A stretch of DNA of 51,388 nucleotides, the filler included, from Jimgerdemannia flammicorona (Eukaryota): the NCBI GenBank assembly GCA_003990765.1. It is 2 parts of 2 records of this genome, joined end to end, with 100 filler letters (N's around TTAATTAATTAA, not from the genome) between each part and the next. Parts side by side here need not be neighbours in the genome. Positions count along the whole stretch, not along the records: positions 1 to 25,651 come from RBNJ01000806.1; 1 more part is not named here. One strand, 5' to 3'. Position 1 is the first letter of the stretch. Each line of letters starts with the position of its first letter. Both the position numbers and the translations under genes were made by a program. A model generated the notes under the pieces. It did not search any database, was not told where the DNA came from, and worked only from the letters and a program-made list of their open reading frames with translations. Positions 3,700 to 43,464 of this stretch are shown here, piece after piece.

Positions 3700-4160
3700 T
3701 ATATAGTATCACTTCAGCTTGAGATTGGATAAACAATAGATATATACTGCCCCAGCCTGAGTTTGGGTGAATGATGGACATATATATACCACCTTAGCCT
3801 AATATATTACTTCAGCTTGAGATTAGGTGAATGATAGTCATATATACTGCTTCAGCTTGAGATCAGGTAAATGATAGATATATATACTACTTTAGCTTGA
3901 GACCAGGTGAATAATAGACATATGCTGCCCTAGTCCAATATATTGCTTTAGCTTGAGATTAGATGAATGATGGACATATATACCACTTCAGTTTAAGATC
4001 AAGTGAATGATAGTTATATGCCACCCCCATTCAATATGCTGCTTCAGCTTGAGATTGTATGAACAATGGATATATATATTACTTCAGCTTGAGACTGGGT
4101 GAATAATAGACATATATTACCCTATTCTGATATACTACTTCAGCTTTGAGATTGGATTGG
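3700..4160 (+). repeat. Tandem array family B (~40/60-bp units, core CTTCAGCTTGAGATTGGGTGAATGAT)
   Basis: Repeated cttcagcttgaga(t/c)(t/c)(g/a)g..gaa..at..acatat units; boundaries approximate. Confidence 0.85.
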
Positions 4161-4449
4161 AGCCAGAATATACTTTATTACTATAATTAATTTCTTAAAC
4201 TAAATAACTAATTAATCAATCAACTATATTATATTATAGAAATTATATAAGGAATATATTCTCCATGAAAAAGATTTTCTTCATCTATATACTGATTATA
4301 GACTTACTACTGATCAAAATACTAGTTACTAATAACTGATCTCAAAAATTGAACATAGATGGGCACAGACTAAGATAGATATTCAAGAATGATATATATA
4401 TTTAGAAGTATATTTAATAATTACAATTTATTATTTTTATATATCTTAG

Positions 4450-6800
4450 ATTAAAAACATATACTATGCTATTGATTTTGAAGTACAAAAGCTACTTGAA
4501 GAAGAACAGACTATAGTTGAATGTGATCTTTTAGATAAAGAAGATGAGATTGCAGAACAAGAGGTATTTAATAGACAAAATATAGTATATTCTGATGCAA
4601 TTCTTGCAGAAGCTACTTTAGAAGAATCTAGAAAAGCTATTAGATTTGACTTTACTCAATATGCAGCTCAAAAAGAGATTTAGGATATTGCTCTATATAC
4701 TCTTACTCAATATACCAGATAATATATATTAGTAATATTGATTAAATATATATATATAAAGAAGATTTATATTTATGAGATTTTTTATTAAATATATTTA
4801 GAATCTAGAATCTATATGAAGAATTTCAAGCAATACAATATAAAGAGCTCTTTAATGAGACATTTAAGCCTAATATTATAACAGAATAAACATCTTCAGA
4901 TATTTGTATATATATATATATATATTTCAACAATGTGATTTTCTAGACAAAACAGATAAATAAGGTAATAAGCTTGGCTGTCAGAGTAGAACAGTAAGTT
5001 TTATTTATTATTTATTAAATATTTTTATTAGTCAAATTATTAAGTTATTAAATAATTTATTTATATATTTAAATTATAGTATTTAACTACAATGACATTT
5101 TACTCAGCTGTTAGCTGAAATTATAATAAAATTATACAATAGTCTAATCAAAGATGTTACTTTGATTTAATACAAGGTGGATGAAACAGGAATCCATTTT
5201 TATCTTGTGAAGTTAGTAGATATATATGTAGCCTTTATAAGTGAAAAGCTCAAAATAGTAAAGCTATAGAGTCTGTATATATATTGAAGCTTGAAGATAT
5301 GAAATATTTATATAATTATTTTTAGAAAAATAGAGCAATTAATGTCTGCCAATATGTGGGTATTATTATATTATATTTTACATTTCTCTGGTATATTAGA
5401 AATATGTAGATATAAGAATAAAGACAATGGGTACATTAATGAGTTTAGGGCAGATATAGATCAATAAGTTTGGAGCAGATGTCTAAAATAGTCACCTGAT
5501 CTTAAGCTAAAGTGGTATATCAGACTGGAGTGGTATATATCTATCATTTACTTAGTCTCAAGCTGAAGTAGTATATATATCTATTATTCATCTGATCTCA
5601 AGCTGAAGTGGTATATATATCTATCATTCATCCAATCTCAAGCTAAAGTTTCATATTAGGCTGATGTAACATATATGTATCTATCATTCACTTAGTTTTA
5701 AGCATATATGTCCATCTTTTACCTGATCTCAAGCTAAAGTACCATATTGGACTAGGGTGACATATATCCATCATTCATCTAATCTTAAGCTGAAGCAGTA
5801 TATCAGACTGAGGTAGTATATATCTATTATTTACTCAGTCTCAAGATGAAGTAGCATATATGTCTATTATTTACTCAATCTTAAGCTAAAGCAGAATATT
5901 AGGCTGGGGTGGTATATATCTATATTCACTAATCTCAAGCAGAAGTAGTATATTGGACTAGGGTGATATATGTCTATTATTTATCTGATTTCAAGCTAAA
6001 GTGACATATTGGGCTGAGGTGACATATGTTCATTATTTATTCAATCTTAAGCTAAAGTGACATATGTTCATTATTTACCCAATATCAAGCTGATATGACA
6101 TATATCCATTATTCTCCCAATCTTAAGCTAGAGTGATATATATCTATCATTCTCTTGCAAATTTCATAGGTAATGGAGATAATTACTAATAAGTTTTACA
6201 ATTATATATAATATCTATTTTTCTATCTATGTCTTCTTTGTAGAGAGAAAGTAATGAAGATTGATCAAATAAATATTGAATATAGAAAAAGTATATTATT
6301 TTAATATTGAATTTTTACAAAACAGCTCAAAAAGATGATATGTAAGTATAAAAGTATATATTTAAAATGAGTAAACAATCAAGATTATTACTATAATATT
6401 CATTTTATTTTTAGAATAATAGGTGTTAAGCCATTTGTTCTTCATCAAAATGACCACAACAAATATCTCTATTCTCTGTATGTATTTCTCAGTTAGAGAC
6501 ATTTCCATGGAACTTCTGCTGGCTTTTTTTTTCTACTAATAGATTGAATTAACTGCCTTAATTTGCACTACTCACTGAGCTACAAATCTTTTAAAGATCA
6601 GTTTGAATATAATTTGCAAGCTATTGAAATTGCAAAATGGTATCTATTTGATACTTATTTTGATATAGTAGATATCAATACTATTACTACTATATAGACC
6701 TATTAAAGCAAATTAGTGAAATTTGTGAATGGTATGGATAGAGCAAAGAATTTGATAATATAACTATTTTTTGTTATTTGAAAAATAAATATAATATCAA
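4450..6800 (+). pseudogene. Intron-containing tyrosine recombinase remnant (Crypton-like YR transposon), heavily C>T/G>A mutated
   Basis: Manual translation, reverted residues in brackets: 5176-5320 GG*NRNPFLSCEVSRY..L..*KAQ....ES....KLEDMKYLY; 6221-6260 FYLCLL[R]RE[E]V (catalytic Arg box); ~6300-6337 LILNF[R]KTAQK; 6422+ GVKPFVLH; ~6647-6682 F[G]T[H][S]..[RRGGC]QY; ~6721-6780 ICEW.G[W]SKEFDNITIF[R]YL (catalytic Tyr). Motif order matches fungal YR domains. Not in the ORF track because of stops. Confidence 0.72.
5495..6150 (-). repeat. Tandem array family B, inverted, inside an apparent intron of the YR pseudogene
   Basis: Repeated tcattcacccaatctcaagctgaagt, the reverse complement of the family B core. 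Confidence 0.85.
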
Positions 6801-6934
6801 ATAAAGGATAAGGGACAATTTTACCTGACCTTATAGAAAGAGAAGATTTGAAGAGAATTAGTATATAAATAATTTAATAAATATAATTATTATGATGAGA
6901 GTAAATTCTGACCATAATAAATGAGATTTCATAT

Positions 6935-8330
6935 AAGATTAGGTAAAAGATGGATATATACTACTTCAGTTTGAGATTTGATAAATGATGGATATATGCC
7001 ACTTTAGCTTGAGATTGAGTAAATGATGAATATATACTGCCTTAGTCTGATATACTATTTCAGCTTAAGATTGGATGAATGATGAATATATGCTACCTCA
7101 GTCTGATATACTGTTTCAGCTTAAGATTAGATGAATGATAGACATATACTACTTCAGCTTGAGATCAGATGAATGATGAATATATACTGCTTCAACTTAA
7201 GATTAGGTGAACAATATACATATGCCACCCTAGTCCAATATGCTGCTTCAGCTTGAGATTAGGTAAATGATATATATATACTATCTCAAATAGTATACAA
7301 ATACTACTCTAGCCCAATATGCCACTTCAACTTGAGATTGAATAAATGATATATATATACTACCTTAGTTCAATATATTGCTTCAGTTTGAGATTAGGTG
7401 AACAATGAATATATACATATACCACTTTATCTTGAGATTAGATAAATGATAAACATATATCACTCTAGCCCAATATATTACTTTAGCTTGAGATTGGGTG
7501 AATGATAGATATATATGCCACTTTAGCTTGAGACTAGGTGAATGATAGACATATTTTGTTACAGCTTAAGATTGGGTGAATAGTATACATATGTTGTCCC
7601 AGTCCAATATGCTGCTTCAGCTTAAGATTAGGTAAATAATATATATATATCACTTTAGCCTGATATGTCACTTTAACTTAAGATTAGATAAAAAATAGAC
7701 ATATATACTATATCAGCTTGAGATTAGGTGAAGATATATATATGCTACTCTAGCCCAATATATTGCTTCAACTTAAGATTAGGTAAATGATAAACATATA
7801 CTACCTCAGTCCAATATACTACTTTAGCTTGAGATCAGGTAAACAATGGACATATATACCACTTTAGCTTGAGACCAGATGAACAATAGACTTATACTAC
7901 TCCAGTCTGATATGCTACTTTAGCTTGAGATCAGGGAAATGATGGACATATTTCACCCCAGTCTGATATGTCACTTCAGCTTGAGATTAGATAAATGATG
8001 GACATATATACCACATCAGCTTGAGACCAGATGAACAATGAACATATACTACCTCAGTTGGATATACTGCTTTAGCTTGATATTGGGTGAATAATAGATA
8101 TATGCTACCTCAGCTCAATATACCACTTTACCTAACCCTAGCTCTAATTATTATCTGGACATAAATACAATGGACAGCTTGAAGTACAGATGGTCAGATG
8201 GTTACATTAGATGTGAATACTTAGGAGAATAATGAATATATATCACTTTTGCTTATGATTAGGTAAGCTACTTTAGCTTAAGATTGAATAAATAATGGAC
8301 AGATACTACTTCAGCTATGAGATTGGGTCA
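6935..8330 (+). repeat. Long tandem array family B
   Basis: More than 20 copies of the cttcagcttgagatt core in the same orientation as 3700-4160. Confidence 0.88.
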
Positions 8331-8962
8331 AGGGACATGAAGACCAAACTGACATCAATGTGAAATTTTTTCTAAAAACTCTTCAAAAGATTGTGTAAGA
8401 CTTACATATATATAATATTATAAAAAAATTCACCCCTAATAGTGCTATTATATAATAGATAAAATATCTAAGAAAATAAAAAATGTATAGTATATTTTAC
8501 ATATAGATAGAGAGACTATGAGCAGAATTTTTCTGCAATACTCTAATCATCTGATTTGCTGCTTAATTAGCACAGAGTACCGCTTTATTCCTTTTTTTTT
8601 TTTTTCCACACTTCGCGCGGGGGCTTAGAGTTCTTGGATCGGTTTTCTTCCTCAAAAAACAGTCATCCTTTGGCACCCCACCCGGCTTTTTCTGGGCCAC
8701 CAGAATTATGACTCGGGACCGTCGGTACCCTGAGGCGAAATATTTCCCATTTCTGTGACTGCCCAAGACGGTTAACAGATCTCGTATATACCTTGTATAT
8801 ATTTTTCAACGTCATCCCTTGTTCTTTGTTATTCCTTCACAAACTGTCTCGGATGCCTAGCTGAATCATTAAGTAAGGTCCTGATCTCTTTTCATTTCCA
8901 ACTTCACACTCTGACCTTGGTTATTCTTTCGCTCATTCTCTGTCCATTTTTTAGATTTCAAA

Positions 8963-11346
8963 ATGGTCGATATTGTTACCCTCACTTGTTACATTCCCAG
9001 CACGTGGTCCATCTTTGACATCATCATTGAGAAGGCGCACTCCGTTGCAAATCTCAAGCACCATCTATGGGAAAGGAAGGCATCGACTTTCCCCGACACT
9101 GACCCAGATGATCTCCAAATCTGGCATGTGAATATTTCTTGCGATTCTAACAATGCCACCTTCGATGCTCTTCAGCGCGAATACAGACCAGACATTGAGT
9201 TGCTTGGAGGTGAGGAATTACATCCAACGCAGAAATTATTTGAGGCATTTTTCAATGTCCCCCAAGAAGGAAGACATATTCATGTGATCATGGTGGCTCC
9301 TGGTACGTCTATTTTTTTTTTTCGTTACTTTATTAGATTGTGATTAGATTTGCTTTTTATTTCTATCTTCGCGTGTCCTTTCTTCGGGAACTCGATTAGT
9401 ACTCTTATCTGTTTCTCTCTGTAACCGTGCTTTCGCTGCTTCAATTCTCCTTAACTATCAACACATCAAGTTACGTGCATACTCTAATTAGGGTTTGGGA
9501 AGAAAAGAACTGCAAAGAGTGGAGAGGATATGCAAAAGTTCACAGAACTAGGGTTTCCAAAGACTTTCGTATTCCGTGTCTATGTATATATCTATTTTTA
9601 CTGAAGCTTTATATTTTGTTTCTTATATTTTATTTCACATTCTACATGGATTCTGCCCTATTCGTTCATTAGTGCTGTGGTACCGGTGGGAGAACCTAAA
9701 GGAACCTGGGACATTATCAACAAAATTGTTGACTAAATGCGTCAATTTGGGAGGCCTTGTCGTTGAACTTTCTTACAGTAACCTGTACGCCAAAAACCTT
9801 AATCCATTTGAGATCTTCTTTGTTGAAAGTGATGATCTCCGCTGCACCAAAATCCTTCGCAGAGGCATTCCCCTTTGTGAGCTGAAAACATCTGACGAAT
9901 CTCCTGTCATCATTCGTTTTCCATTCTCGGGGCGTTCCGGTGAGCCAAGTTATTTCTCTCTCTCTGATAGTGTCAGTAACCTAAACAACATGGTTTTACT
10001 TTTTATACGCATTTGTAATTAAGCCATTGCTTATTCGACTTCATCGTACCTTGTAGTATATATGAACCTCACATTTCTCAACGTTCCCGTTGAGATAATT
10101 CTTGGCCACGATACCGGGACATGGCATATGCTTTTGAATGGCACCAAGAAGAAATATCCGAAGTTGGAAGAGGCCGAGAATGAAATCTACTATGTTGACG
10201 CAAAGAAAAATATTATCGAAAATGATTTTACTTTCAACAACTATTTGAAGAATGCTCCCTTGAGCGATCAAGATGAAATTTTTCTCACTTTTTTTGTTCG
10301 AATCAAAGGTGCCTTTATTTTTATTTTTATTTTATTTTATTTTATTTTTTTTTCGAATTTGTAAAAATGTTGCTGTACTGTTATGGAATTTTTACACTGC
10401 TCTTACATACTATTTCTTAACGCCCTTCGGATAGGCAAGAGAGTTTACGGCGAGTGGGACGCAAAAGACGTGATCCGGGAGATCTTGCACCAACAATACG
10501 CGAACATCACCTTCTTGCCTGAATTCGACATAGGTAAAGTTTTCACGTCACGGTCTTCCCATTTTTATTAATCAGCATTGTTACTGCATTACTGCATTTT
10601 TATTAATTGATTGGGATCTTTTCTCGTAGAGGACACCTTGGAGAACGAAGTCGAGATCACTGACGACGATAAGCAGACTTTCGTCACTGCCCTCAACGAA
10701 ATTACAAAAGCATTCCATAATTTTGTAACCAGCAACGAAGCTACAGTGTGGAATTACATAAACCCTTTTATGACCAAGGCGGTTGCTATTGTCCAACATC
10801 AACATCCTTCAGCCCGTCTCGCAGTAGAAGTGGACTTTGATGGAAGTCGCGGCTTTGGACGTCTAGACTCTTGTGACGGAGGCCAAAATGACTGAAGTTA
10901 ATAAGGGAATAACACAAAATCTTGTACAACTTCATTCTGCGGCAGAGGTATGCAATGTTGTTGCTTTTAGACAGGTTCTACTTTATTTCTCCCTATTCAA
11001 GTCTCATTAAACCTTTCCAATTTAATTACATATTTCCCAGAATATTCGCAAATGCAAGCGTAAAGAGTCACATCACCCCACCGATTATCTCGCCAATGTG
11101 TATGGGATAGTCATGACTGGATTGGAGTTGCGATTCATCCGCTGGTCGGACACACTGGAATCCCTGAAGGTGGTTATTTCCAAACCTTACAGGTGTATAT
11201 TTAACAGAGAAGGCATAGAGGACGCCGAGAAGGTGCTCTCTATCATAATCCGCATTATTCATTCGCAAGCCATTGTCGTGGAATCACAAATCGGAAGCAG
11301 CGAAGGAATATATGACGTGGCAATGAAAAAAGATAATGTCCTATGA
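8963..11346 (+). pseudogene. Crinkler (CRN)-family effector-like gene: N-terminal ubiquitin-like CRN header plus C-terminal PD-(D/E)xK nuclease-like domain; frameshifted at ~10869
   Basis: Exon 1 (8963-9302) has LQIWHV (LxLWKV/LFLAK-equivalent) and HIHVIMVAP (HVLVxxP). GT-AG exons follow at about 9491, 9672, 10057, 10436, 10630-10947 and 11041-11346. The C-terminus has EATV..YI, G.RG.GRLD, EAK...G..QN..QL and YGIV.TG...RF. D (10866-68) and LVTEAK (10870-87) are out of frame by 1 nt. Confidence 0.8.
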
Positions 11347-11848
11347 CCATCTCAACGCCAATGCTCTGACAAGGACGACGAGGAAATCGTAGAACCTGAA
11401 CAAAGTCTTTTTGAGTGATACAGTATGGATGGAGGATTGTTTTGTGAAAATGTTTGAACTTGTCTCCTCTTCCTCTCATTTTGCTTGCGAATAGTTTTGT
11501 AATTGAATTTCTAATTGTCATGCTATGTTTTGTCAATGGAAGAAAGTCATCTCAGAATATTGTGTTTTAGTTTGAATTATGACATCTCTCTCAATAACAC
11601 GCTCTTCCAGAGTAGTCGAATATGGATACTGATGTGGTTTACAAATACAGAAAGATGCATAGTTGGTAATGTTCCTCAGAAAATAAATTGTTTCGTTAGT
11701 AATTGGCTTTGGTTTTGATGTTTGTAGTGAAGAATTTTTTACAATAATTCTATTTACATATATCTTAAGAGCAGTCCACCTATTTTAATAATATCAAAAT
11801 AATCTAGTACTCCATTTTTAAAATATTAAAATAACTATTTATAAGTAT

Positions 11849-13117
11849 TGTGACAAACCAAGACGTACTACCCGAATCATATCTTTACCAGATGACGCGA
11901 ACAAGATGACGTGAACACTCAGCTTAGTAACCAGCAACCATTTGCTGCGGAAACTGTATAAATAGCCAGACATACCAGAAAGGGTCTGTTTACCTGTACA
12001 GACTCTGTACACTGTACAGACTCTGTACACTGTACAGGTCCTGTACACCGTACAGACTCTGTACACCTGCCATAAGTAGCAGATCTATAGTTAGCCACAT
12101 AGTAACCAGATAGCAACCAACTTGTATAAATTACCCCAGTGGCGAGAGTGAATAAAACCTCAGTCCAAAATACAAACACCAAAGAAGTCTCTAAAGATTG
12201 AGCATTGGTCCCCTTTCCACTCCGGTCCACTTTCCGATACAAAGCTTGAAGATTTGCCGCCTAAGTTCAAGGAGAACTTCGCTGCCTTTGAAGAGAAACC
12301 CTTGGTTTGCTTGCCAGCTAAGCCTGAAGATTCCGCCTTTTCCGCCTTTCCAAGAAAGCTGCCTTGCTCAAGCCAGTTTCTGATGCAACTTCGCAGTGAT
12401 TCGTCGCGCAAACGAAGCCAGTCTTTGATGTAACTTTGCCAAGAGACCCTTTCCCAAAGAATGCCGCCAGTTTTATCTGCCATATTCCCAGTTAGAGCCG
12501 CCGATTCAGGAAGAATCCACGCCATTGTATTCCCAGAAAGAGCCATCTGAGTTATTTCCCAGAAACCTGCCGATTCAGGAGAATCCGTGCCATCCGACGT
12601 TTTCGAGTTATCCACATCCCCAGAAAACCCATGCCATCTGAGTAGTATTCCCAGTTGAAGCCAAAACTGCGACATCCGAGTTATTTGTCATTCCCAGTGA
12701 GCCCAAGTTATCTAGTTATCTGTCGCCATACATTCCCAGTGAGCCAAATCGAGTTATCCGCCAAGTTATCAGAACGTCCGCATAAGGAGAACCTTTAGAT
12801 TGTCAGACCATCACACCCAGAGATCGCATACTTTTGGAGATCGTCGCGCTACACAGAGATCGTCACCCAGAAATCGCTACACAAAATTGTACCATTCCCA
12901 GTTGACCCAAGAAGGAAGTCCATTCACACACAAATCGCCGCTACACCCAGAGAACCGTCCCAATAAGGAAATCGCTCGCACAGTATCCAGATCTTGACTA
13001 TTATACCGCTAAACACCAAGAACATTTTGTTGCTTTTAACAAAGTAACTGGGGGCTCAAGCCAAACTACATCAACCCCCAACCTTGTAATTTGCCTCCAT
13101 TGAGCCAGCACGTTACA
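11849..13117 (+). repeat. 5' LTR (1269 bp)
   Basis: Starts TGTGACA, ends CGTTACA, followed by the PBS; homologous to 20715-22016. Confidence 0.93.
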
Positions 13118-13119
13118 TT

Positions 13120-13137
13120 TGGGGGCTCAACTGGGAA
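13120..13137 (+). promoter_or_regulatory. Primer-binding site, tRNA-Pro type (TGGGGGCTCAACTGGGAA)
   Basis: TGG begins 2 nt after the LTR end. It resembles the MLV tRNA-Pro PBS TGGGGGCTCGTCCGGGAT, and its reverse complement looks like a tRNA T-stem/acceptor/CCA end. Confidence 0.8.
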
Positions 13138-16100
13138 GATTTCAAAATCAATGTGACTTTTCAGCTCACAAGAACCCACAGTCAAACTGGATACATTTGA
13201 TACAACACCAACCTCTGCTACTACAGGAGAACCAGTCATCACTAGCATCTGGACAGGAAGAGAAGTAATCACCTCAAGACTTGCCAACTACCCAGCATCA
13301 GAAGGATCTCAACCAGAAGCAGGAGGCAGTACAGCGCGAAATCCTCAGCCAGATCAACCAGATCAATCAGATCAACCAGACAATACAGGCAGCCCTGCTG
13401 GAGATTTTGGAGAACTTGCACAAGAACTAGAAGACTTTATTACCCGGACCCAACATCTTACAGCCAGATACCCCACACCAGTCCCACCAATTTCACCAAT
13501 AGAACCCCTACCACAACCTCTTGGAGAACCAGAAGTAGCTCCTACAAGGATACCTAGGTCTACTCCACCTCACCCAAGAACGAGGACACCATCTTCAAGA
13601 TATCCAAGCACCCGGGCCTCTAGTGACAGTTCAGAAAGTGAACCAGAATCAGAATCCGAATTTGAACCAGAACCAGAAGAAAGTGACGAAGAAATGGCCA
13701 CCTCATTGCCAATCTTTGCAGGATACCCAGAGGAAGACCCCAGAGAATTCCTTGATGGAATTGAAGGAATTGCAGCCTTGAGGAATCTCTCAGATGAAAG
13801 GAAAATCGCCATCTACAAAGCTCAGCTCAGAGAACCAGCCAGAGGGATTTTCCATCGAACAGCAAACAACCCAGATTCCGAACTAGCAAGGCAGATACAA
13901 GCAGCAGTCTCCTATGAGCTAGAATATCAGGCCATGGTCTACTGGCTCATAGAAAAGTATGCAGGAAATGAAACCTGCCACAAGGCTCAAGAATCCATTA
14001 TGGGAATGAAGATGAATCTTGGAGAATTACCCAGAGCCTTCTTCACAAGAATCCAGAAGAGAATGCACTCTGCCGGGTTCAATGCCACCAACCAGGACAT
14101 CATAGGTCCAATGACCTTCATGAATGGAATTCCCCCGAATATTGCCCAGCATGTCCGCACCCTAGGCATCAGAAGGTCTGAAGAGCAGGTAGATGCAGCC
14201 TAAGGATTCTTTGATGTCAGGCAAGGAACTACCTAGAGTGACCATGACAAGAAGGAAGATAAAGAAGATATCCTGGTCAAAGCCCTGCAAGGACTCCTTC
14301 AAGGACAAGAAAGGTCTGAAGAAAGAAGGCCAGCCAAGGAAGGAAAAAAGGACAGAAGCAAAATTCAAGACCTCAGCTCCAAGTTAGACCAATTGGTTGG
14401 ACAAATTGAAAAACTCACCACATGCGAAAATCAGGACTACCAAAACAACAGAGGATACCCACCACAGAGGAGCCAAGGTTATCCACCCAGAGATAATAGG
14501 AATTACCAGCAAGAAGAAAGAAGGTACCCAGCCCGAGACAGAGCCCAAGTCCAATGCTTCTACTGTGGACAATTTGGACACTATGCCACTGAATGTGACA
14601 ACAAAAGAAGTGACCGAAGGGACTCAGAACCACCAAACTGAAGGAATGACACCCAGTACAAGAAGACTGAAGCCCATCCTGTTGAAGATTTCGAGGAAGC
14701 AAGCAATAGTGAAGACTACAGTGACCTAGACTTGTACCCTACCAAGGTTACCACCCGAAAGACAGTCTACCCAGCAGAAAAAAGAAAGAGACCTGTGGGA
14801 AGACCATCCAGGAATATCAGTAGGAGAATTATTCAAGAAGAAGATGAAGAACATGAGGAGGAACAAGTTGAAACACCTCCCCGAACCCCTTCACCTTTTG
14901 TGCCCAAGACAAACGAGTTGCTACCAGAAGATGAAGAAATAGAACAAGAAGAACGGGAACCTGTTGCTCCAAAGCCTAAAAAGAAGTACACCCCGAAGAC
15001 CATGCCTAGGGATATTTACAATGAAGCCTGGCAGAAGATTCAAGAAGCCAAGATGGAAGTTCCTCTCCTGCAGTTCTTGCAACTGATACCAGCTGGAGTC
15101 CAAAACAAATTGCTGAGAACCACCAGGTCTAGCACTGACTGAGTTCCAATCCCACAGCAAGAACCAGCCTCCATTCCTGTCCAAGCAGCTGAAAGACATG
15201 TCAGCACCTACTTACATGGAGACATTGGAGGACAAAAAGCAAAAATCCTCATAGATACAGGAGCAGCTGTCTGTGTCATCGCCAAACGATTCCTGGATAC
15301 CCTCCAATGGCCCATTGATGGACCATCCAACCTCAGCATCATAGTAGCAGATGGAGCCTGAACTCAACCCCTTAGAGAAGTACGAAATATCACCATCTCC
15401 CTTGGACACATTCAGTTCTCTATCCCCAAAGCTGTTGTCACCGAAGCTGTCACCTATGACATGATTCTTGGCACCAACTGGATGAAGGAAATGAATGCAG
15501 TTGTTGATATTGGCCAACAAGTACTCAAGTTTGACTACCGAGGCAAGAAGTATAGAGTTAAGGTGACCAGCTATGAGCAATCGAAGAAGAAGAAGAAGGT
15601 TACCATTCAAGAAGAGTATGCCAGCAGTGAGGATTCTACTACAGAAGAAGAAGAAGAATCTGAAGATGGAAATGATCCCAGACTCAATCCATGAATTAAC
15701 CTGGTGGACGACAGACCAGAAGACAATGTGTGGGCTAAGAACACCATCCCCATCACTATTGGAGCCATTGCAGGAGAAGCCAAAGGATGCCCCACATACC
15801 TCAAGAGACACAAGTGCCCCGAACACTCCTCCAAGATTATGGGAAAAAGGAAATCGCCTGGTACAGCTTGCCCAGAATGCAGAAGAAAGAAGAAGAAGTG
15901 CAGACATATTCCAGAAACACCTGCGACCAAAGTTGCAGAAGTACAAGCAATTTGGGGTCAAGAATCATCTGAGGAAGAAGAAACTTCTGACCAAGAAGTT
16001 CCTGAACAAGAAGCACCTGGTGAAGAAGAAGTTCCCGAACTCATCCCCTGGGATGACCCTCGGTGGACACCACCTGAAGACAATGACCCCTGGAATACAG

Positions 16101-16882
16101 AGGAAGGACCCAGTACCATCACCATTATTCCCAAGAAAGAAACCCACCAAGAGAAAGCTTTCCGGCTAGGAAGATGTCCACATCAAATGGTCTTCCACTC
16201 TCCCCGAGACTACTGCTATCAGTGCCATCTGTTGGACCAACAAGAAAGACAGAGACCCCAGAGGCCAGAACCCCCAACTACTCTTGCACAATCCACCACC
16301 TTTCAAGAAGTCACCACAAGGTTACAAAGTCGATTTAGGGGACAAGGCTTCTTCACCTGAACAGAAATATACCCCTTGTCTACCCTTCCCCCAACCTATG
16401 ATCAAGATGGGTACCGATTTCCAAGACAACAAGAGATAAATAGCCAAGAACATCATTTCTGGGCAATGGGATATTGCAACCATGGAAGACACCCTGATTG
16501 CCGAGACTGCAGAAATCAGAAGATTCACCTCAGTCATGATGTTGCAGTACACACCCTGAAGAAAGGAGATAACCGAAGCCAGATCCGAAAAAGCCAGATT
16601 CGAAAAAGCCAGACCAAGAAGCCTGGAAAAAGAATTCTCAAGATCTACGATTTGGGAGAAGACATCCTAGCTCTTATTAGACATGCAACCCGCCAAGGAT
16701 GGGCAGAAGATGCCACCAACTTCATGGAAGCCCTTGATCCTACAGGAAGAAGGGGAATCAATTACCTCCGAGACCCCTCTACTGGAGCCAGATGGCCACA
16801 CCTCAACCTTAGAGCTTGGAGGCTTTCTGCCAGTGGAGCTTCAGCCTTAGGGAAGCCCGAACTCAGCGAGGATATTGCTCAG

Positions 16883-17284
16883 TATGCCCTGCTGCACCCC
16901 AAGGCCAAACCCCCGACCAAAGCCCACCCAGAGGATGTAGGATATGATCTTCACAGCCTGGAGGATGAAAATATCAAGCCAGGAAAAACCTTCATGGTCA
17001 GAACAGGAATAGCCATACAGCCACCCCAGGGAGCTTATATTCAACTGACCTCAAGGTCTGGACTTGCCAGACAAGGGATAACTGTAGAAGGAGGAACTAT
17101 TGACCCTGGATATACAGGCGAAATCAAGGTTATCCTACACAACAGCAGTACAGAATGGCACCGAATCATTAGAGGACAGAAGATTGCCCAAGCAGTCTTC
17201 ACGAAGGTCAAGACCCCACAGTTACAGGAAGTCTCTGAACTAACTGAAGGAACAAGACAAGCTGAAGGATTTGGAAGTTCAGAC
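16883..17284 (+). other. dut: Trimeric dUTPase domain within ORF1
   Basis: All five motifs are present: VGYDL, SRSGLA, GTIDPGYTGEI, GQKIAQ and RQAEGFGSSD. Confidence 0.95.
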
Positions 17285-17634
17285 AGGAAAGAGGTACATC
17301 TCCTTCAAGTCAACCACCTCAAGAGGAATGTTCCCCAGCAAGTATACCGGCAACCAGTCAGACTGCACAAGAATCTCATCCTGGAGCCTGGAGAACAAAC
17401 TACCTTCGAAATATTTGTACCACCTGACCCCAGGAACCTTTTCTTCAAACCCAAGGAAGACATCCCACACCTGGACATAGAGGGACACACATTCCCTGAC
17501 AAGATGAACCCAGTGCACTCTCGAGGAACCAACCAAAGTTGGGAGACCATCATCTTGCCAAAAGGAACCATCATAGGACACCTGGTGTCTTTTCTCAACT
17601 GAACTCATAGGGAAGTTTATGAACTAAACCTATC

Positions 17635-17682
17635 GGGAAATGGCAAAAGGTCCCAGAAGAAAGGAAAGGCCCCTCTGCGACC
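17635..17682 (+). promoter_or_regulatory. Putative -1 programmed ribosomal frameshift signal
   Basis: G_GGA_AAT heptamer (17635-41) in ORF1 phase, a 7-nt spacer, then a stem GGTCCCAGAAG/CCTCTGCGACC (9 of 11 pairs). It lies in the 70-nt overlap between ORF1 and the -1 RT frame. Confidence 0.7.
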
Positions 17683-19099
17683 CAGGAGACAGTGAAGCCT
17701 TCCACCAACATTGGAGAAGAATTGACACCTCAACAACAGCAACAACTAGTAGAACTCCTCAACAAATATCAAGATATTTTCACCACCGATTTTGGCAACC
17801 TGCCATACAATCCATCATATCATCACAGCATAAATACAGGAAGTGCAACACCCATCTGGCAGAAACCCTATAGAATACCCCATCACTTGAAAACATTTGA
17901 AAAGGAGCACATCCAAGAACTCTTAGACAATGGAGTCATCCGACCCTCTACCAGCCCCTGGGCCAGCCCTATACTTATTGTACCAAAGAAAGGAGGATGG
18001 AGACTCTGCGTGGATTACAGGAAACTCAACTCAGTCACTGAAAAGGATGCTTATCCTTTGCCCAGAATCGATGACCTTTTGGACCAGTTACAAGATGCCA
18101 GATACTTCAGCAGTATGGACCTCTTTGCAGGATTTTACGAGATCCCCATGGACCCCAAGGACATTCAAAAGACAGCCTTCCTTGCCTTAGGAAAACTGTT
18201 TGAATACCTCTGAATGCCCTTTGGACTTTGCAATGCACCCCCCACCTTCCAGAGGATGATGAATTCAGTCTATGCCCCCTTGATCCACCACTGTCTGATT
18301 GTATACATGGATGATTCCAACATCTATTCAGCAAATTTCGAAGAACACCTGCACCATCTAGAGGAATTCTTCAAGCTCACCCGCAAGAATCACTTGAGAC
18401 TGAATGCAAAGAAATGCTACTTTGGAAAACAGAAACTCGAATTCCTTGGATTTGTGGTCTCCAAAGAAGGAACTCATGCAGACCCAAAGAAAACCGAGAA
18501 GATCAACAATTGGCCAGTACCCAAGACTCCGAAGGAAACACTATCATTCCTGATGCTAGTATCCTACTACAGAAGGTTCATCAAGAATTTTGCCCAAATC
18601 GCTGCCCCAATCCAAATCCTTCTCAAGAAAGGAGTACCATTCAAATGGACAGAATCACAGGAAAAAGCCTTCAGAGAACTCAAGAACCTCATGACTACAG
18701 CACCAATCCTTATGTGCCCCAATCTACAGAAGCCATTCATCCTGTACACAGATACTTCCAAAGATGGCCTAGGAGCAGTTCTAGCCCAGGAAGGACCTGA
18801 CCAACAGCACCATGTGATAGCTTATGCAAGCAGGGCTACCAATCAGCAGCAGATGAACTATGGCAGCACCAAACTGGAATGCCTTGCAGTCATATGGGTG
18901 GTCACTCTGTTCAAGCATTACCTCATCAGAAAAAGGTTCACCCTGATCACAGACCATGCAGCCCTCAAATGGCTATTCAACTGCAAGGAACCTGCCGGAA
19001 TTCTAGCCCGCTGGATCCTTATCCTCCAGGATTACCATCATTCACAAAGCAGGGAAAGCTCACAACAATGTTGATGTACTTTCCCGCCAGCCCCAATGA
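17635..19099 (+). pseudogene. pol: ORF2: reverse transcriptase - RNase H
   Basis: Motifs: SPWASP, WRLCVDYRKLN, YPLPRIDDLL, [R]MPFGLCNAP (TGA at 18211), YMDD 18304-15, YTDTS, LECLAV, TDHAAL. After a small deletion at ~19033 the tail TIIHKAGKAHNNVDVLSRQPQ* is shifted by one frame. Confidence 0.93.
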
Positions 19100-20163
19100 A
19101 CTAGAGGAAGGGTGTCCTGAGGAACCACACCTTAAAGGAAGCTCCTCAGACTATCAAAGCACAAGAAGATCTTATCTGAAAAGAACATCAGAAAGCCCAC
19201 CAAGGACAGACAAGCACAGAAGACAAGATTCGAAAACAATATCAACATTGGCCCCACCTCAGAACTCAAGTCCGGGACATCATCCAGAAATGTGACATCT
19301 GCCAGAAGTACCAAGGAAAGAAGAACTATCAAGCCCCTCTGCAACCGATTCCCCCACCCACTCACATCTTTCAAAGATGGGGAGTAGATGTAATTGGACC
19401 TCTACCAGTTACACCAAGAAGAAACAAATACATCCTTGTATTTGTAGAACATCTGACCAAGTGGCCCAAGGCTTTCCCAATGGAAATCGCAGATGCCTTA
19501 ACCATTGTGGGCCTCCTCCATGGGCTCACACTCAGATATGGACCCCCAGAAGAACTCATCTCTGACCGAGGCACAGAATTCATCAATAACATAATCACAA
19601 GTTATGCCCGAATTCACAAGATCCACCTCAAAAGGACCACATCATACCACCCACAGACCAATGGCATGACAGAAAGAATGAACCAGACCATCAAGAAAGG
19701 ACTTGCCCAAGTCAACCCTACTAATTGGGACCTCTGCTTACCTGAGATCCTATGGGAAATTCGGAATACCCCTGCCACATCTACCAAACAAAAGCCATTC
19801 AAAATGATGTTTGTCAAGAAAACCAGAACTGCTGACTATGAGAATCTTGGAGACCTCCTCAAGAAGGCAGAACAGTTACGAAATCAAGCCCAAGGACAGA
19901 TTATCAAAGCCCAGGAAAGACAAAAGAAGTACTATAACCAAAAACAGAAAGATCAGGAGATCAAGATTGGAGATCAAGTCCTAGTCTGGAGAAGTATGAT
20001 TGAGACAAACTTTGCCACCAAACTAGAACCGAAATGGAAAGGACCTTATCTTGTACACAATATCAGAGGAACCAGCATCTATTTAAGAAGCATGGATGGA
20101 TGAACCCTGAGAACACCAGTACATATCAATCGCCTCAAAGTATATTTCCCTTCTACACTATGA
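19096..20163 (+). pseudogene. ORF3: integrase (HHCC, DDE, GPY/F; no chromodomain)
   Basis: Motifs: EHQKAHQG...CDICQK; WGVDVIGPL; ISDRGTEF; GMTERMN; KWKGPY; VHINRLK. Internal stops at 19102, 19177 and 20101. The ATG 19096 start is inferred. Confidence 0.9.
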
Positions 20164-20675
20164 GCCAAAGGATTGATCAGCGCCTCCAGACATTGGTCCT
20201 TAGCTCCTTCCAAGCCCTACCTGTTCCTCTACCTCAATTCGGCCAAGCCAATGGGAACTCCCTTCAAAGGATCTAAGTTCATCAAGAAAATCTCACCTTG
20301 GCCAGACGCCTACTACAAGTCCATCAACTGCAGGCCTATTATGCAATCGGTGAACAATTGCAGAACCTCCCAGCCCCAGAACAGACCTACATCAGAAATA
20401 CTATGGGTCTGACCAGAAGAGACACTACTGCTGCAGACAGACTATACACCATTTACAAATGAAATGTCACAGCCCTGATACAGGCGCAATTCTCTCTGAA
20501 TGACATCCAAGGAATGAACCCTGTTACCTACCTGAGTATCATCAACTCTGTCGAAATCCTCTTCTCTGAAGAAGAAGAAGAGCCCCTAGAATGGAGTAAC
20601 CCCAGTACAGACAACGAAGATGATGGAACAGGTATAGATGCAGAAGCAGCCTATGCTTATTGGAATGATGACTGA
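20160..20675 (+). pseudogene. ORF4: unknown 171-aa protein in the env position
   Basis: ATG 20160 to TGA 20673-75 in one frame with two revertible stops (TAA 20274, TGA 20460). It fills almost all the space between integrase and the PPT. Confidence 0.72.
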
Positions 20676-20679
20676 AGAA

Positions 20680-20714
20680 TAGTCTGGGACAGACTACCCT
20701 TCAGTGGGGGCTGA
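20680..20714 (+). promoter_or_regulatory. Pre-PPT hairpin (TAGTCTG-GGA-CAGACTA) and short PPT-position tract (AGTGGGGGCTGA)
   Basis: Perfect 7-bp stem at 20680-20696 and a G-run immediately 5' of the 3' LTR. Confidence 0.6.
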
Positions 20715-22016
20715 TGTGACAAGCCAAGACATACCACCTGAATCATATCTTAACCAGATGACGCGAACAAGATGACGTGAACACTCAGTCTAGTAACCAA
20801 CAACTGTTGCTGTGGAAAACTGTATAAATAGCCAGACATACCAGAAAGGGTCTGTTTACCTGTACAGACTCTGTACACCATACAGACTCTGTACACTGTA
20901 CAGGTCCTGTACATCGTACAGACTCTGTACACCTGCCATAAGTGGCAGATCTATAGTTAGCCACATAGTAACCAGATAGCAACCAACTTGTATAAATTAC
21001 CCCAGTGGCGAGAGTGAATAAAACCTCAGTCCGAAATACAAATATCAAACAAGCCTCTAAAGATTGAGCATTGGTCCCCTTTCCACTCCGGTCCACTTTC
21101 TGATACAAAGCTTGAAGATTTGCCACCTAAGTTCAAGGAGAACTTCGCCGCCTTTGGAACTATTGGTTCGCTTGCCAGATAAGCCTGAAGATTTCCACCT
21201 TTTCCGCTGCATTAGAAAGCTGCCTTGCTCAAGCCAGTTTCTGACGCAACTTCGCAGTGATTCATTGCACAAACGAAGCCAGTCTTTGACATAACTTTGC
21301 CAAGAGACCCTTTCCAAAAGAACGCCGCCAGTTTTATCCGCTGTATTCCCAGTTAGAGCCACCGATTCAGGAGAATCCGCGCCATCTGAGTTAATTCCCA
21401 GTTAAGCCGCCGTTTTCAAGAAACCCGCCAAATCTGCATCATCCACCACTTTCGAGTTATCTGCATTCCCAGAAGAGCCCGATTCGGAAGAACTCACGCC
21501 ATTCGAGTAGTATTCCCAGTTGAAGCCGAATCCGTGACATCTGGGTTATTCGTCATCCCCAGTGAGCCTGAGAAGAATCCACCACCAGCATTATTCCCAG
21601 AAAGGAGAACCCGCGCCTTACATTCCCAGTGAGCCAAATCGAGTCGACCGCCAGAAATCGCATACTTTTGGAGATCATCGCGCTACACAAAGAAATCGCC
21701 CGCTACCCAAGAAGGAGAACTGCTAAATTATCAGACCGTCACACCCAGAGATCGCATACTTTTGAAGATCGTCATGCTACACAAATTGTACCATTCCCAG
21801 TTGACCCAAGAAGGAAGTCCATTCACACACAAATCGCCGCTACACCCAGAGAACTGTCCCAAAAAGGAAATCGCTCGCACAGTATCCAGATCTTGACTAT
21901 TATACCGCTAAACACCAAGAACATTTTGTTGCTTTTAACAAAGTAACTGGGGGCTCAAGCCAAACTACATCAACCCCCAACCTTGTAATTTGCCTCCATT
22001 GAGCCGGCACGTTACA
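20715..22016 (+). repeat. 3' LTR (1302 bp)
   Basis: TGTGACA...CGTTACA; colinear with the 5' LTR at both ends, rearranged in the middle. Confidence 0.93.
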
Positions 22017-23499
22017 CTATATATAGGCAAATTTACCTGCAAAAATTATTATTTTACCAAATATAGTATTTACAAATATATATATTTAGTATAAAATCTC
22101 TCTTTTTATATATATTATAGTATAAATATATATATAATTACTATAATATAAATAAAAAATATTATAATAATATTTCTATTAACTATTATTATCTGCTCAT
22201 AATATTGTTATCTTAAGTTTAAAATTTTCACACTTTTAATAAAATCTTAATATAATCATTTTGTTATCTGAAGTTCAAAATCCTCACACTTTTAATAATT
22301 GTTAGAAATTCTCAAGATCTTAAAATGGCCAATTGTCATATATAACTATAAAACCTCAAAGTGACTATGAAATCTCATAGCTGATATAAAGTTTTTTATA
22401 ACTAACATATCTTTTTAATAACAGTTTGCAAATAAATATTAATCAAAAGATGAGCATCCCAATTAATTACTTTAACCTCCCAACTAATATTAAAAACTAT
22501 ATTTATAAAATCTAAACCTTTCTTATTAAATTAACATTGAAAGAAGTATGCATTATAGTCAATGAAGAAATATTTTATACATCAAGAACTGGCATTACTT
22601 CTTCACTAACTTTAGCCAGTAATAAGAATACTTCAGATAATGAGAAGTATATTTGGATGAATTGAAAAGCCAAGGCAAGTACTATATAAAATATCAGAAT
22701 ATATAATAAGTAATGAGCCTAGAAGAAAGCTACCACTACAATCCAAAAGAAAGCTATTACTATCTCCTAAAAGAAAGCTACTACTGCTATCTAAAAGAAA
22801 GCTACTACTGCTGCCACTATTATCATTGTTACCTCTACCACTACTACATATCCCCACTACTACTACTACTATTATCACCCCTACTATTACCCCTACTATT
22901 AAATAAAAAAACAAAGAGGATATTAAGCAAGCTCAGAAGAAAGCTTAAGATATCAACAAAATATAACAAATTGGTACTGCTCTGTGAAAAGCCTAAGCAA
23001 TTCCATTACAATATATATAATCTATTGAGATTTATATATACCTCTATGCCAAGAATACTACTCTTGAAGATATTTTCAAGAACTATCACATTTTTGGAAA
23101 AGTTTTATATTAAGATGAACATGAATAAAAACAGAAAGAAACAGATTTAGAATGAGTACAAGTTATTATAAAACTTGTCAAATTATCACTATCCTATCTT
23201 GATGAGTCAAAGAAGTTAAATAAGTATATTTGAAAGACAAGCAAAATATATGATATTACTGCCTAGCTAACCCCAATCAGGTATAAAATTATAGGAAATA
23301 ACCAAATCAGACTTGATTAATATTGCTAAAAACTATATTCCAATATACTTTATATGTTTGTAAATAATAATAGTTCTACTATATCTACTATAAATATTAT
23401 GAACAATATGTAATTATGATAAATAAATTATATAGATACTTATAATGATCAGTTTTGGCTCTCAGGGTCCAGGGAATATGGATTGAGATACTATAGTAA

Positions 23500-24009: not shown

Positions 24010-25560
24010 ATAACTTATCAAATAAAATAAAAATAAAAGAGAGATATAATTATTAAGGCAGATAGCCAGACACAATATATAATTTATCAAATATAATAAA
24101 AATAAAAGGAAGATATAATTGTCAAGACAGATAGCCAGACACAACATATAATCTATAAAAATAAATAAATAAAAAGTAGAATCACTGAGGCAGATAGCTA
24201 TATATGAAATATTATCTATCAAATAAAATGAAAATAAAAGAGAGATATAATTGTCAAGGCAGATAGCCAGATATGAAAATAAAAGAGAGATATAATCATT
24301 GAGGCATATAGTCAAAAATGATATATAACTCATCAAATAAAATAATAAAAAAGAGATATAATTATCAAGACAGATAGCTAGACATAACATATAACCTATC
24401 AAATAAAATGAAAATAAAAGGGAGATATAATTATTGAGGTGAATAGCCAGACATGATGTATAACTCATCAAATAAAATAATAAAAGTGAGATATAATCAT
24501 TGAGGCAAATAGCCAGACAAGATATATAACCAATCAAATGAAATAATAAAAGGAAGATATAATAATTAAGGTAAATAGCTGGACACAAAATAAAACTTAT
24601 TAAATAAAATGAAAATAAAAGAGAGATATAATTGTTAAGACAGATAATCAGATATAAAAATGACCCATCAAATAAAATAAAAATAAAAGAGAGATAGAAT
24701 CATTGAGACAGATAGCCAGACATAATATATAGCCTATCAAATAAAATAATTAAAGGGAGAAATAATCATCAAGGCAGATAGCCAGACATGATATATAACT
24801 CATCAAATAAAATAATAAAAAGGAGATATAATCATTAAGATAGATAGCCAGATATGAAATATAACCCATCAAATAAAATAAAAATAAAAGAAAGATATAA
24901 TCATCAAGACAGATAGTCAGATATGAAAATAACTCATCAAATAAAATGAAAATAAAAGGGAGATATAATCATCTAGACAGATAGCCAGACATGATATATA
25001 ACCTATCAAATAAAATAATTAAAGAGAGATATAATCATTGAGGCAAATAGTTAGATATGATATATAACTATTAAATAAAATAATAAAAGAGAGATATATT
25101 CATTGAGGTAGATTGCAAGATATGATATATAACTCATTAAATAAAATAATAAAAGGGAGATATAATCATTGAGGCAGATAGTTAGACATAATATATAACC
25201 AATCAAATAAAATGAAAATAAAAGAGAGATATAATAATTGAAGCAGATAGCCAGACATAATATATAATCCATTAAATAAATAATAAAAGAGAGATATAAT
25301 CATTGAGGTACATAGATAGCCAGATATGAAAATAATCCATAAAATAAAATAAAAATAAAAGACATAATTATTAAGACAGATAGCCAGACATGACATATAA
25401 CCCACCAAATAAAATAATAAAAAGGAGATATAATTATTGAGGCAGATAGTCAGACATAATATATAATCTATTAAATAAAATAATAAAAGAGAGATATAAT
25501 CCTCAAGGCAGATAGTCAGATATAAAATATGATCCATTAAATAAAATGAAAATAAAAGGA
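24010..25560 (+). repeat. Tandem array family C, 66-69-bp unit, roughly 20+ copies
   Basis: Unit ~GAGATATAATCATTGAGGCAGATAGCCAGACATGATATATAACCTATCAAATAAAATAATAAAAGA; spacings of 69 and 66 measured at 24353, 24422 and 24488. Confidence 0.9.
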
Positions 25561-25651
25561 GTCTTTTCAAGTGGTTAGGTATAAAGAAGATGAGCTGCAA
25601 GAAATAAAGAGTCAGGGAATGAAGCAGAGAGAGTAAAGACTCCTTAAAAAA

Positions 25652-41839: not shown

Positions 41840-43464
41840 ATGGCAAGCAACACGATGGCCATGGCAGGAAACACGACCATCCCACACTACGACCCCGGCG
41901 ATGTTTCCTGGGTTTTGACCTCCACTGCTTTTGTATGGCTTATGATTCCTGGTATTGGTTACTTCTACTCTGGAATGTCCCGGAGTAAGAACGCACTGTC
42001 GCTCATCATGCTCAGTGTTATCTCTGTCGCCATTGTATCCTTTCAGGTAACGCTTTTTTTTTTTCTCACCTCACCTTATTTGACTTCACAAAGTCGCGCT
42101 GTGTAATTGCTTCCTGTTTATATGCGCTAATCTATTGTGATTTTCGAAACATCCTCCATTCTTGTGTAGTGGTTCTTTTGGGGATTTAGTTTCACGTACT
42201 CCAAGACGTCGACCAACCCCTTCATTGGTGACTTTAGCAATGCCTTCTTCCGTGGAGTCAATACCTCACCTTCCATGGGCAACCCCAAGGTCCCTGACGT
42301 TGTTTTCGCTGTCTACCAATCCATGTTCGCCTCTTTCACCCCCGCCCTCGCCATCGGTTCGGTTGCTGAACGCGGTCGGCTTCTCCCCACAATAATCTTC
42401 ATCTTCATCTGGACAACCATCGTCTACGATCCAATCGCCTATTGGACGTGGAACACCAACGGTTGGTCAAACAAGATGGGCGTTCTCGACTTCGCCGGCG
42501 GTACACCCGTTCATATCAGCTCCGGCGCTGCCTCCCTCGCCTACGCCCTCATCCTCGGAAAACGCCAGGGCCACGGCACCGAGGAGTTCAAGCCCCACAA
42601 CATGGCCCACGTCGTTCTCGGTACCGCCTTCCTGTGGTTCGGCTGGTTCGGCTTCAACGGCGGCTCCGCCGTCGCCGGCGACATCCGCGCTGCTATGGCT
42701 TGCCTAGTTACCAATCTTGCCGCATCCGTCGGCGGCCTCACCTGGATGCTCATGGACTACCGCATCGAGCGTAAGTTCTCCGCACTCGGTTTTTGCAGCG
42801 GCGTCGTCGTCGGTCTCGTCACCATCACCCCGGCCTCCGGTTTCGTCGGGCCTGCATCGGCCGTCGCCTTCGGTATCATTGGCTGTATTACCTGTAACTT
42901 CGCCTGCAATCTGAAGCACGCGTTCAACTATGATGACGCTCTCGACATTTTTGCCGTCCACGGTGTTGGTGGTTTCGTTGGCAACATTCTCACTGGTATC
43001 TTCGCCGAGTCTTACATTGCCGCGCTCGACGGCTCTACCGTCATTGCCGGTGGGTGGGTCAACGGGCACTTCACTCAGATTCTCTACCAACTTGCCGATG
43101 CTTGTGCTGGGATGACGTACTCCTTTGTTGTCACCTACTCTATCCTGTTCCTCATGGACAAAATCCCCGGTCTTTCACTGCGTGTTGATGCTGAAACTGA
43201 GATCAAGGGTATCGACGTCAGTGAAATTGGCGAGTTGGCGTACTACCACGTTGACAAAATTCTAGTGATCGATTCCAAGGTAATTAAATTCATACACCTC
43301 CATGACCACTGAAGATTGCTCGAGGGTATTTCTTGCCTTTTCAGCACAGATTTTTAACTTTGCCTTCTATAATCAATTAGACTCATGAAACCAAGTTCGT
43401 CGAGCAGATCAGGAATGGCAACAACAACAAAGTTGCCGACTTCTCGCGGCTTAACAATGTTTAA
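41840..43464 (+). CDS. Amt/Mep ammonium transporter, copy 1 (466 aa)
   Basis: Exons 41840-42046, 42170-43279 and 43381-43464 are in phase. Motifs DFAGGTPVH, WFGWFGFNGGS and DDALDIFAVHGVGG; the twin-His pair is intact. Confidence 0.96.

Follow-up and report, generated by a model that had tools for sequence, protein, structure and literature searches.

Versions of an accessory gene in a fungal Ty3/gypsy retrotransposon pair with their own palindrome arrays: a candidate activator of the element's long terminal repeat

Long terminal repeat (LTR) retrotransposons commonly carry extra open reading frames (ORFs) after pol, which mostly have no assigned function, as the accessible text of PMC7264820 describes them. 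Here, we consider one such gene, ORF4, from the fungus Jimgerdemannia flammicorona (assembly GCA_003990765.1). It belongs to a decayed Ty3/gypsy element at positions 11849-22016 of the window, that is, the whole 51,388-nucleotide stretch of DNA that was analysed, and sits between the integrase and the 3' LTR. What is new about it is that each version of ORF4 is paired with its own array of palindromes in the LTR.

Sequence-specific activators of an element's own expression are known from foamy viruses and plant DNA transposons. The foamy-virus protein Tas/Bel1 directly binds response elements in its LTR, has an N-terminal DNA-binding part and a C-terminal acidic activation part, forms a dimer and is associated with an internal promoter (PMC517496 and PMC4929722, available portions). 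ORF4 likewise sits as an accessory gene near the 3' LTR of its element, its C-terminal region is acidic (net charge -11 to -18 over the last 40 residues of the nine full-length close homologues), and binding, activation, dimerisation and an internal promoter may be proposed for it as well. It differs from Tas in lacking a sequence match to it, in its fungal host and env-less Ty3/gypsy carrier, in its putative targets, which are perfect tandem palindromes with 7-bp arms and a 3-bp spacer (7-3-7), in that no response element is seen at its candidate internal promoter, and in the coexistence of several versions on one backbone. The VANC proteins of Arabidopsis VANDAL elements, which are Mutator-like DNA transposons, remove methylation; their tandem, short target motifs change with the protein between related families and are non-palindromic 8-9-mers over non-coding regions (PMC5735166, available portion). 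The tandem motifs of ORF4, its putative targets, also vary with the protein (133 of 138 copies concordant). In contrast to VANC, ORF4 has no VANC-domain homology, its carrier is not Mutator-like, and its motifs are palindromic and confined to the promoter.

Two further comparisons concern accessory genes as such. CERV, an accessory protein of the C. elegans LTR retrotransposon Cer1, is nuclear, is not an Env, regulates the expression of its own element and acts on RNA export from a spliced mRNA (PMC10309623, available portion). ORF4 is also a non-Env accessory protein of an LTR retrotransposon and a putative regulator of its own element's expression, whereas CERV acts on RNA export and no similarity between the two was found. 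Additional sense ORFs between pol and the 3' LTR have been reported from plants (PMC7264820), rotifers (PMC5408684) and fungi ('add. ORF', PMC2864245). ORF4 shares their position, orientation and family-wide conservation, and its carrier, like some fungal and rotifer elements, has a dUTPase between protease and reverse transcriptase. As far as the available portions of these papers go, the described proteins are Env-like, transmembrane (TM), GDSL or DEDDy proteins or have no assigned function, and none is paired with a cognate LTR motif array. The available portions of PMC13547354, PMC6338049 and bioRxiv 10.64898/2026.08.24.746577 hold no closer case. In the literature searched, mostly open-access, we found no description of the ORF4 family, no LTR retrotransposon whose LTR is activated by a sequence-specific DNA-binding protein that the element itself encodes, and none with a cognate activator-operator pair. 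By analogy, ORF4 most likely works like Tas and evolves like VANC with tandem targets, and as judged from its sequence it is a member of neither.

A selected gene that travels with its array

An earlier reading of this DNA, made from the sequence alone, had proposed an unrecognised ORF of 171 codons with two stops downstream of the integrase. Its start, its terminal stop and the quoted peptide stretches are all present: the frame begins with ATG at 20160, ends with TGA at 20673-20675 and contains two internal stops, TAA (codon 39) and TGA (codon 101). Among the 30 nearest genome copies, a sample biased to close copies and including the window copy, all 30 keep the ATG, all 29 gap-free ones end at codon 172, and nine are open throughout. 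A protein search found at least 150 near full-length copies, 83-100% identical (best 150 of 1687 candidates), and the length is a multiple of three in 8/8 representative versions. Pairwise comparison of up to 25 copies per group, without a consensus, gave a net dN/dS between types A and C of 0.16 (kappa 2) or 0.24 (kappa 8), the same with CpG codons masked, and between types A and B of 0.33 (kappa 2) or 0.54 (kappa 8), with or without CpG codons. For A and C, the ORF4 frame gives a pN/pS of 0.27 and the other forward frames give 1.58 and 2.40; the selection signal is specific to the ORF4 frame. Judged by these ratios, ORF4 is under purifying selection, and we regard it as a real gene with near certainty. 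The sequence-only reading had staked its proposal on frame conservation, on selection among copies and on the lack of a characterised-domain match; the frame is conserved and under purifying selection, and ORF4 has no significant Pfam, PDB or fold match.

AlphaFold confidently predicts a domain made of helices alone, which include a long one and a helix-turn-helix-like segment; a disordered acidic-aromatic tail follows. This agrees with the helical protein and the acidic/aromatic tail that had been read from the sequence: the net charge of the last 40 residues is -7 to -18 across homologues, and the tail is among the least variable parts of the protein. No Pfam family rises above noise for 11 ORF4 homologues, and no viral protein turned up in the homologue searches. 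An Env or Env-like protein, already doubted earlier, is rejected, with no TM-like hydropathy in the 11 homologues (best 19-residue values 0.62-1.46), few or no cysteines and a soluble helical model. The same holds for a chromodomain, with no Pfam Chromo match and a model without strands. Weak structural and language-model leads on residues 55-140 hint at ParB/KorB-type helical domains and at DUF3102/DUF1016_N; ORF4 lacks the N-terminal ParB domain, and none of the scores reaches significance. The palindromes bound by ParB dimers are 16 bp long.

ORF4 occurs in at least seven versions, several of them on a near-identical integrase backbone. Along full-length copies, types A, B and C resemble one another in gag and pol but not in ORF4. 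With up to four copies per type compared, transversions in the integrase core of A, F and C amount to 0.4-0.7%, about the within-type level, versus 6.7-10.2% in ORF4. The distal LTR is mosaic even within type A; like the gag-pol backbone, it is exchanged freely across types, while ORF4 and its array stay together. ORF4 is a rapidly exchanged cassette with the promoter-proximal LTR. The closest pair of versions is B1 and B2, whose differences lie mostly in residues 60-100.

The array is a tandem run of one to seven 17-bp palindromes between two TATA-like boxes of the LTR, with a period of 18-19 bp; across versions it shows six different half-sites and one common 7-3-7 geometry. The parts of the window copy that matter here are the following.

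11957-11964, plus strand: first TATA-like box, 5' of the array, by sequence; kept in 133/138 copies
11995-12065, no strand: type A array, putative operators of ORF4; four palindromes of 17 bp with half-site TGTACAG and a spacer of 3 bp, at a period of 18
12125-12131, plus strand: second TATA-like box, 3' of the array, by sequence; kept in 132/138 copies
20080-20087, plus strand: TATA-like box inside the integrase tail, 80 nt 5' of the ORF4 ATG; candidate internal promoter
20160-20675, plus strand: ORF4 of 171 codons, broken by stops at 39 and 101; its ATG overlaps the stop of the integrase
20373-20456, plus strand: predicted helix 3, turn and helix 4 (residues 72-99, AlphaFold model), putative DNA-reading segment
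20568-20672, plus strand: disordered acidic tail with conserved aromatic-acidic end motif (residues 137-171), putative activation or co-factor docking segment
20861-20931, no strand: the corresponding four-unit type A array in the 3' LTR

How closely do gene and array correspond? From 171 distinct copies, 138 with a complete segment were scored; the other 33, stand-alone genes among them, were incomplete or had no anchor. Array patterns were derived from the same copies but assigned blind to ORF4 type. The two types agree in 133 of the 138, with three off-diagonal and two unclassified. One off-diagonal copy, L142, represents a further version, the seventh, called E. Its palindrome, used as a query, had 59 exact matches versus none for a control. 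Ten of these sites were examined: four included an ORF4, each time with the E helix, and six were without ORF4. Another, L222, combines an F-background gene carrying altered helix-4 residues with an A-like array. Letter changes in both arms under a constant geometry go beyond what linkage explains and point to a symmetric binder with changing specificity, and ORF4 appears to be the only element protein that changes in step with the array.

These version-specific arrays favour one of three functions guessed at earlier, that of a transactivator; anti-silencing would be a variant of the same mechanism, and integration targeting gains no support. The cassette exchange and the stand-alone homologues had escaped the sequence-only reading. 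In the mechanism we propose, the selected gene would encode a small protein predicted to consist of a helical domain (long helix and helix-turn-helix-like unit) and the acidic-aromatic tail, and it moves with the promoter-proximal LTR as a cassette of at least seven versions, each with its own 7-3-7 array. A dimer of each version would bind its cognate palindromes, read by the start of helix 4, and the conserved tail would recruit the host transcription machinery to the adjacent TATA box, creating a private positive feedback loop. ORF4 itself might be expressed through an internal promoter within the integrase tail or through translation that stops and restarts. The TATA-like box 80 nt 5' of its ATG is kept in 100/105 copies (types A, F, C, E and D); because it sits in conserved integrase code, this is not independent evidence for a promoter. 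An A stands at -3 of the ORF4 start in all contexts listed, which cover types other than B. The integrase stop overlaps the ORF4 ATG in 52/55 type A copies and lies 14 nt inside ORF4 in types F, C, D and E. Since the junction of RNase H and integrase also has a stop-start overlap, coupled translation would be an alternative to the internal promoter.

Homologues outside the element and competing readings

Two stand-alone homologues of ORF4, both intact, lie on contig G000:C2821 in head-to-head orientation, with 404 bp between them.

SA1, locus L141 4540-5019, minus strand: 44% identical to type A
SA2, locus L141 5424-5918, plus strand: 61% identical to type A

In 16.6 kb of this DNA, neither an integrase nor an LTR was matched, and the nearest DNA relatives of the locus are at most 73% identical (best 40 of 674 candidates). 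SA1 groups with type D (support 100/100), of which all seven sampled element copies are broken by 8-14 stops each. It keeps 80 nt of integrase tail, beginning at the TATA-like box, and the transfer therefore went from element to host. In SA2, the start of helix 4 is that of type E. CpG retention is 0.23 in SA1 and 0.36 in SA2 versus 0.00-0.16 in element copies. The pair possibly represents host capture of ORF4; alternatively, both may be small fragments that escaped the decay hitting repeats. Their neighbours are host genes (Crinkler-like, hydrolase, caspase-BTB and Zn2Cys6), and short repeats around them suggest local rearrangement.

On balance, the evidence inclines us to see ORF4 as a dimeric, sequence-specific activator of its cognate LTR, Tas-like in its working and unrelated to Tas in sequence. 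The broader statement, that it binds the LTR palindromes as DNA and sequence-specifically, whether to activate, repress or counter silencing, appears likely. Several observations weigh against the activator. We infer binding from the co-variation of gene and array, and behind the 138 copies stand no more than about six independent switches. Gene and array are separated by about 190 bp of proximal LTR that itself follows the type, so linkage alone could explain their co-segregation. L069 is genuinely discordant, with an ORF4 of type B2 and an array of type B1. The same palindrome occurs in D and E despite different helix residues, so there is no simple residue-site code. Type differences are weakly enriched in residues 84-90 (9/81 positions, p 0.02, in a hand-picked window), and windows at residues 28-34 and 116-122 score equal or above. 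The ParB-family matches are far below the aligner's reliable range and tied with unrelated helical proteins, the candidate internal promoter, unlike that of foamy viruses, has no operator-like site nearby (best four mismatches), and the array folds as a strong RNA hairpin (-39.6 kcal/mol, z -6.1).

Some of these points suit other explanations. If the pairing were linkage only, ORF4 could serve nuclear import, integration tethering or host antagonism and diversify under host pressure, with arrays that bind host factors and hitch-hike. The proximity of gene and array, the discordant L069, type differences scattered over the whole protein and the lack of a significant fold match to any DNA-binding domain all fit. 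A single 7-3-7 geometry with an 18-19 bp period over six half-sites would not be expected from different host factors, though, and ORF4 and the array stay joined where distal LTR and gag-pol backbone swap freely; we consider this account improbable. Slightly less probable still is that the array is bound as RNA, a transcript from the first TATA box forming a TAR-like 5' hairpin on which ORF4 would act like Tat, Rev or CERV in elongation or RNA export. That box lies about 30 nt 5' of the array and is widely kept, the array folds well, and CERV provides a Ty3/gypsy precedent for an RNA-export protein (PMC10309623, available portion). Yet good folding is expected of any tandem palindrome, unit number varies from one to seven, no arginine-rich RNA-binding stretch is evident in ORF4, and fixed unit variants break pairs (A-C 393 versus G-U 131 of 3122), though same-strand C>T decay should favour G-U.

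The remaining alternatives retain DNA binding and change its purpose. As a VANC-like anti-silencer, ORF4 would bind the same palindromes and remove DNA methylation or heterochromatin from cognate copies. Within type A, decay is fastest at CpG, where a fraction of 0.49 of the sites differs versus 0.06-0.12 in other C contexts, so the family is probably methylated, and VANC targets are tandem motif arrays co-evolving with the protein, as far as PMC5735166 is available. The ORF4 arrays are restricted to one promoter position between TATA-like boxes, whereas VANC motifs spread through non-coding regions; the short acidic-aromatic tail suits an activation motif, and no VANC-type Pfam domain was found in ORF4, which leaves this reading about as unlikely as linkage. 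A repressor for self-limiting copy-number control or immunity against sibling elements seems very unlikely. The array would cover the start site if the first TATA box is used, which is a repressor's position, and two intact host homologues, kin of versions broken in all sampled element copies, would be easier to explain; against this stand the conserved tail and the at least 150 near full-length ORF4 copies that gene-bearing families reached. Lastly, ORF4 could found a new helical DNA-binding family, an activator-operator cassette switching specificity, of which the host twice captured older versions (SA1 and SA2) to occupy or mark operators, driving the switching in an arms race. We hold this extension to be speculative and rather doubtful.

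The carrier element and its surroundings

The carrier is a Ty3/gypsy element by its LTRs, its gag-protease-reverse transcriptase-RNase H-integrase order and its Ty3-like reverse transcriptase, whose best match among solved structures is Ty3 (E 1.5e-90; next family 2e-52). Pfam matches cover zinc knuckle, protease, dUTPase, reverse transcriptase, RNase H and integrase. The element has four frames and the accessory gene is the fourth, so the name ORF4 counts correctly.

11849-13117, plus strand: 5' LTR (TG...CA); 136 of 1218 aligned bases differ from the 3' LTR
12151-12156, plus strand: AATAAA, candidate polyadenylation signal, by sequence
13120-13137, plus strand: primer-binding site, by sequence, which we take to be tRNA-Pro-like
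13157-17695, plus strand: ORF1 with gag (zinc knuckle), protease, uncharacterised region and dUTPase; stops break the window copy, start not fixed
17635-17641, plus strand: slippery heptamer, conserved -1 junction of ORF1 and ORF2, putative frameshift site
17635-19099, plus strand: ORF2, coding for reverse transcriptase and RNase H, with Ty3 nearest among solved structures; broken in the window copy
19096-20163, plus strand: ORF3, integrase in its own frame, without chromodomain; ATG overlaps the ORF2 stop; broken in the window copy
20703-20714, plus strand: purine-rich tract 5' of the 3' LTR
20715-22016, plus strand: 3' LTR

Reverse transcriptase-RNase H is in the -1 frame relative to gag-protease-dUTPase in 9/9 copies holding the junction, and the heptamer is kept in 6/9. 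As this junction follows the dUTPase, protease and dUTPase are made in the gag frame. The integrase has its own frame in 107/113 copies, and its ATG overlaps the RNase H stop (19096-19099). Such a separate integrase ORF is unusual for Ty3/gypsy and suggests stop-restart translation. Between protease and dUTPase lie about 400 codons (15695-16900) with several Cys/His clusters and no Pfam match, 88-97% identical across copies. Another copy, L193 (G000:C77), has a deletion from the dUTPase region to just 5' of ORF4 and retains gag, protease and ORF4; it is possibly a non-autonomous form.

No target-site duplication was found in the flanks of the window copy (11836-11848 and 22017-22030), and the 11% difference between its LTRs clusters mid-LTR; given both, the copy may be a recombinant of two insertions. 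Short modules in shuffled order make up the distal LTR (12180-13000 and 21050-21900), where each LTR has about six TTCCCAG repeats; this part is mosaic even between the copy's own two LTRs. At 13045-13110, the LTR end repeats the first bases of the primer-binding site, and a partly complementary stretch downstream could form a hairpin with it.

Elsewhere in the window, there is a Crinkler N-terminal domain at 8915-9340, and three unrelated degenerate tandem arrays occupy 1147-2897, 3705-8133 and 24010-25596, with units of about 17 bp, 38-56 bp and 66-69 bp; one of them contains an inverted block. Outside the element's contig lies an inverted pair of ammonium transporter genes (42163-43265 and 45348-46450), 85% alike. 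An ammonium transporter from that part of the window is closest to fungal Mep2, and the assembly contains fungal chitin synthases; both fit a fungal host.

What the pairing would mean

The genome offers a naturally occurring specificity series in which seven protein versions stand beside six palindromes, and the hypothesis of a cognate activator can therefore be tested with few oligonucleotides and small proteins. If it is true, it would give a function to a class of orphan ORFs, provide a set of small, possibly orthogonal activator-operator pairs, and bring the logic of complex retroviruses to fungi, in an element without env.
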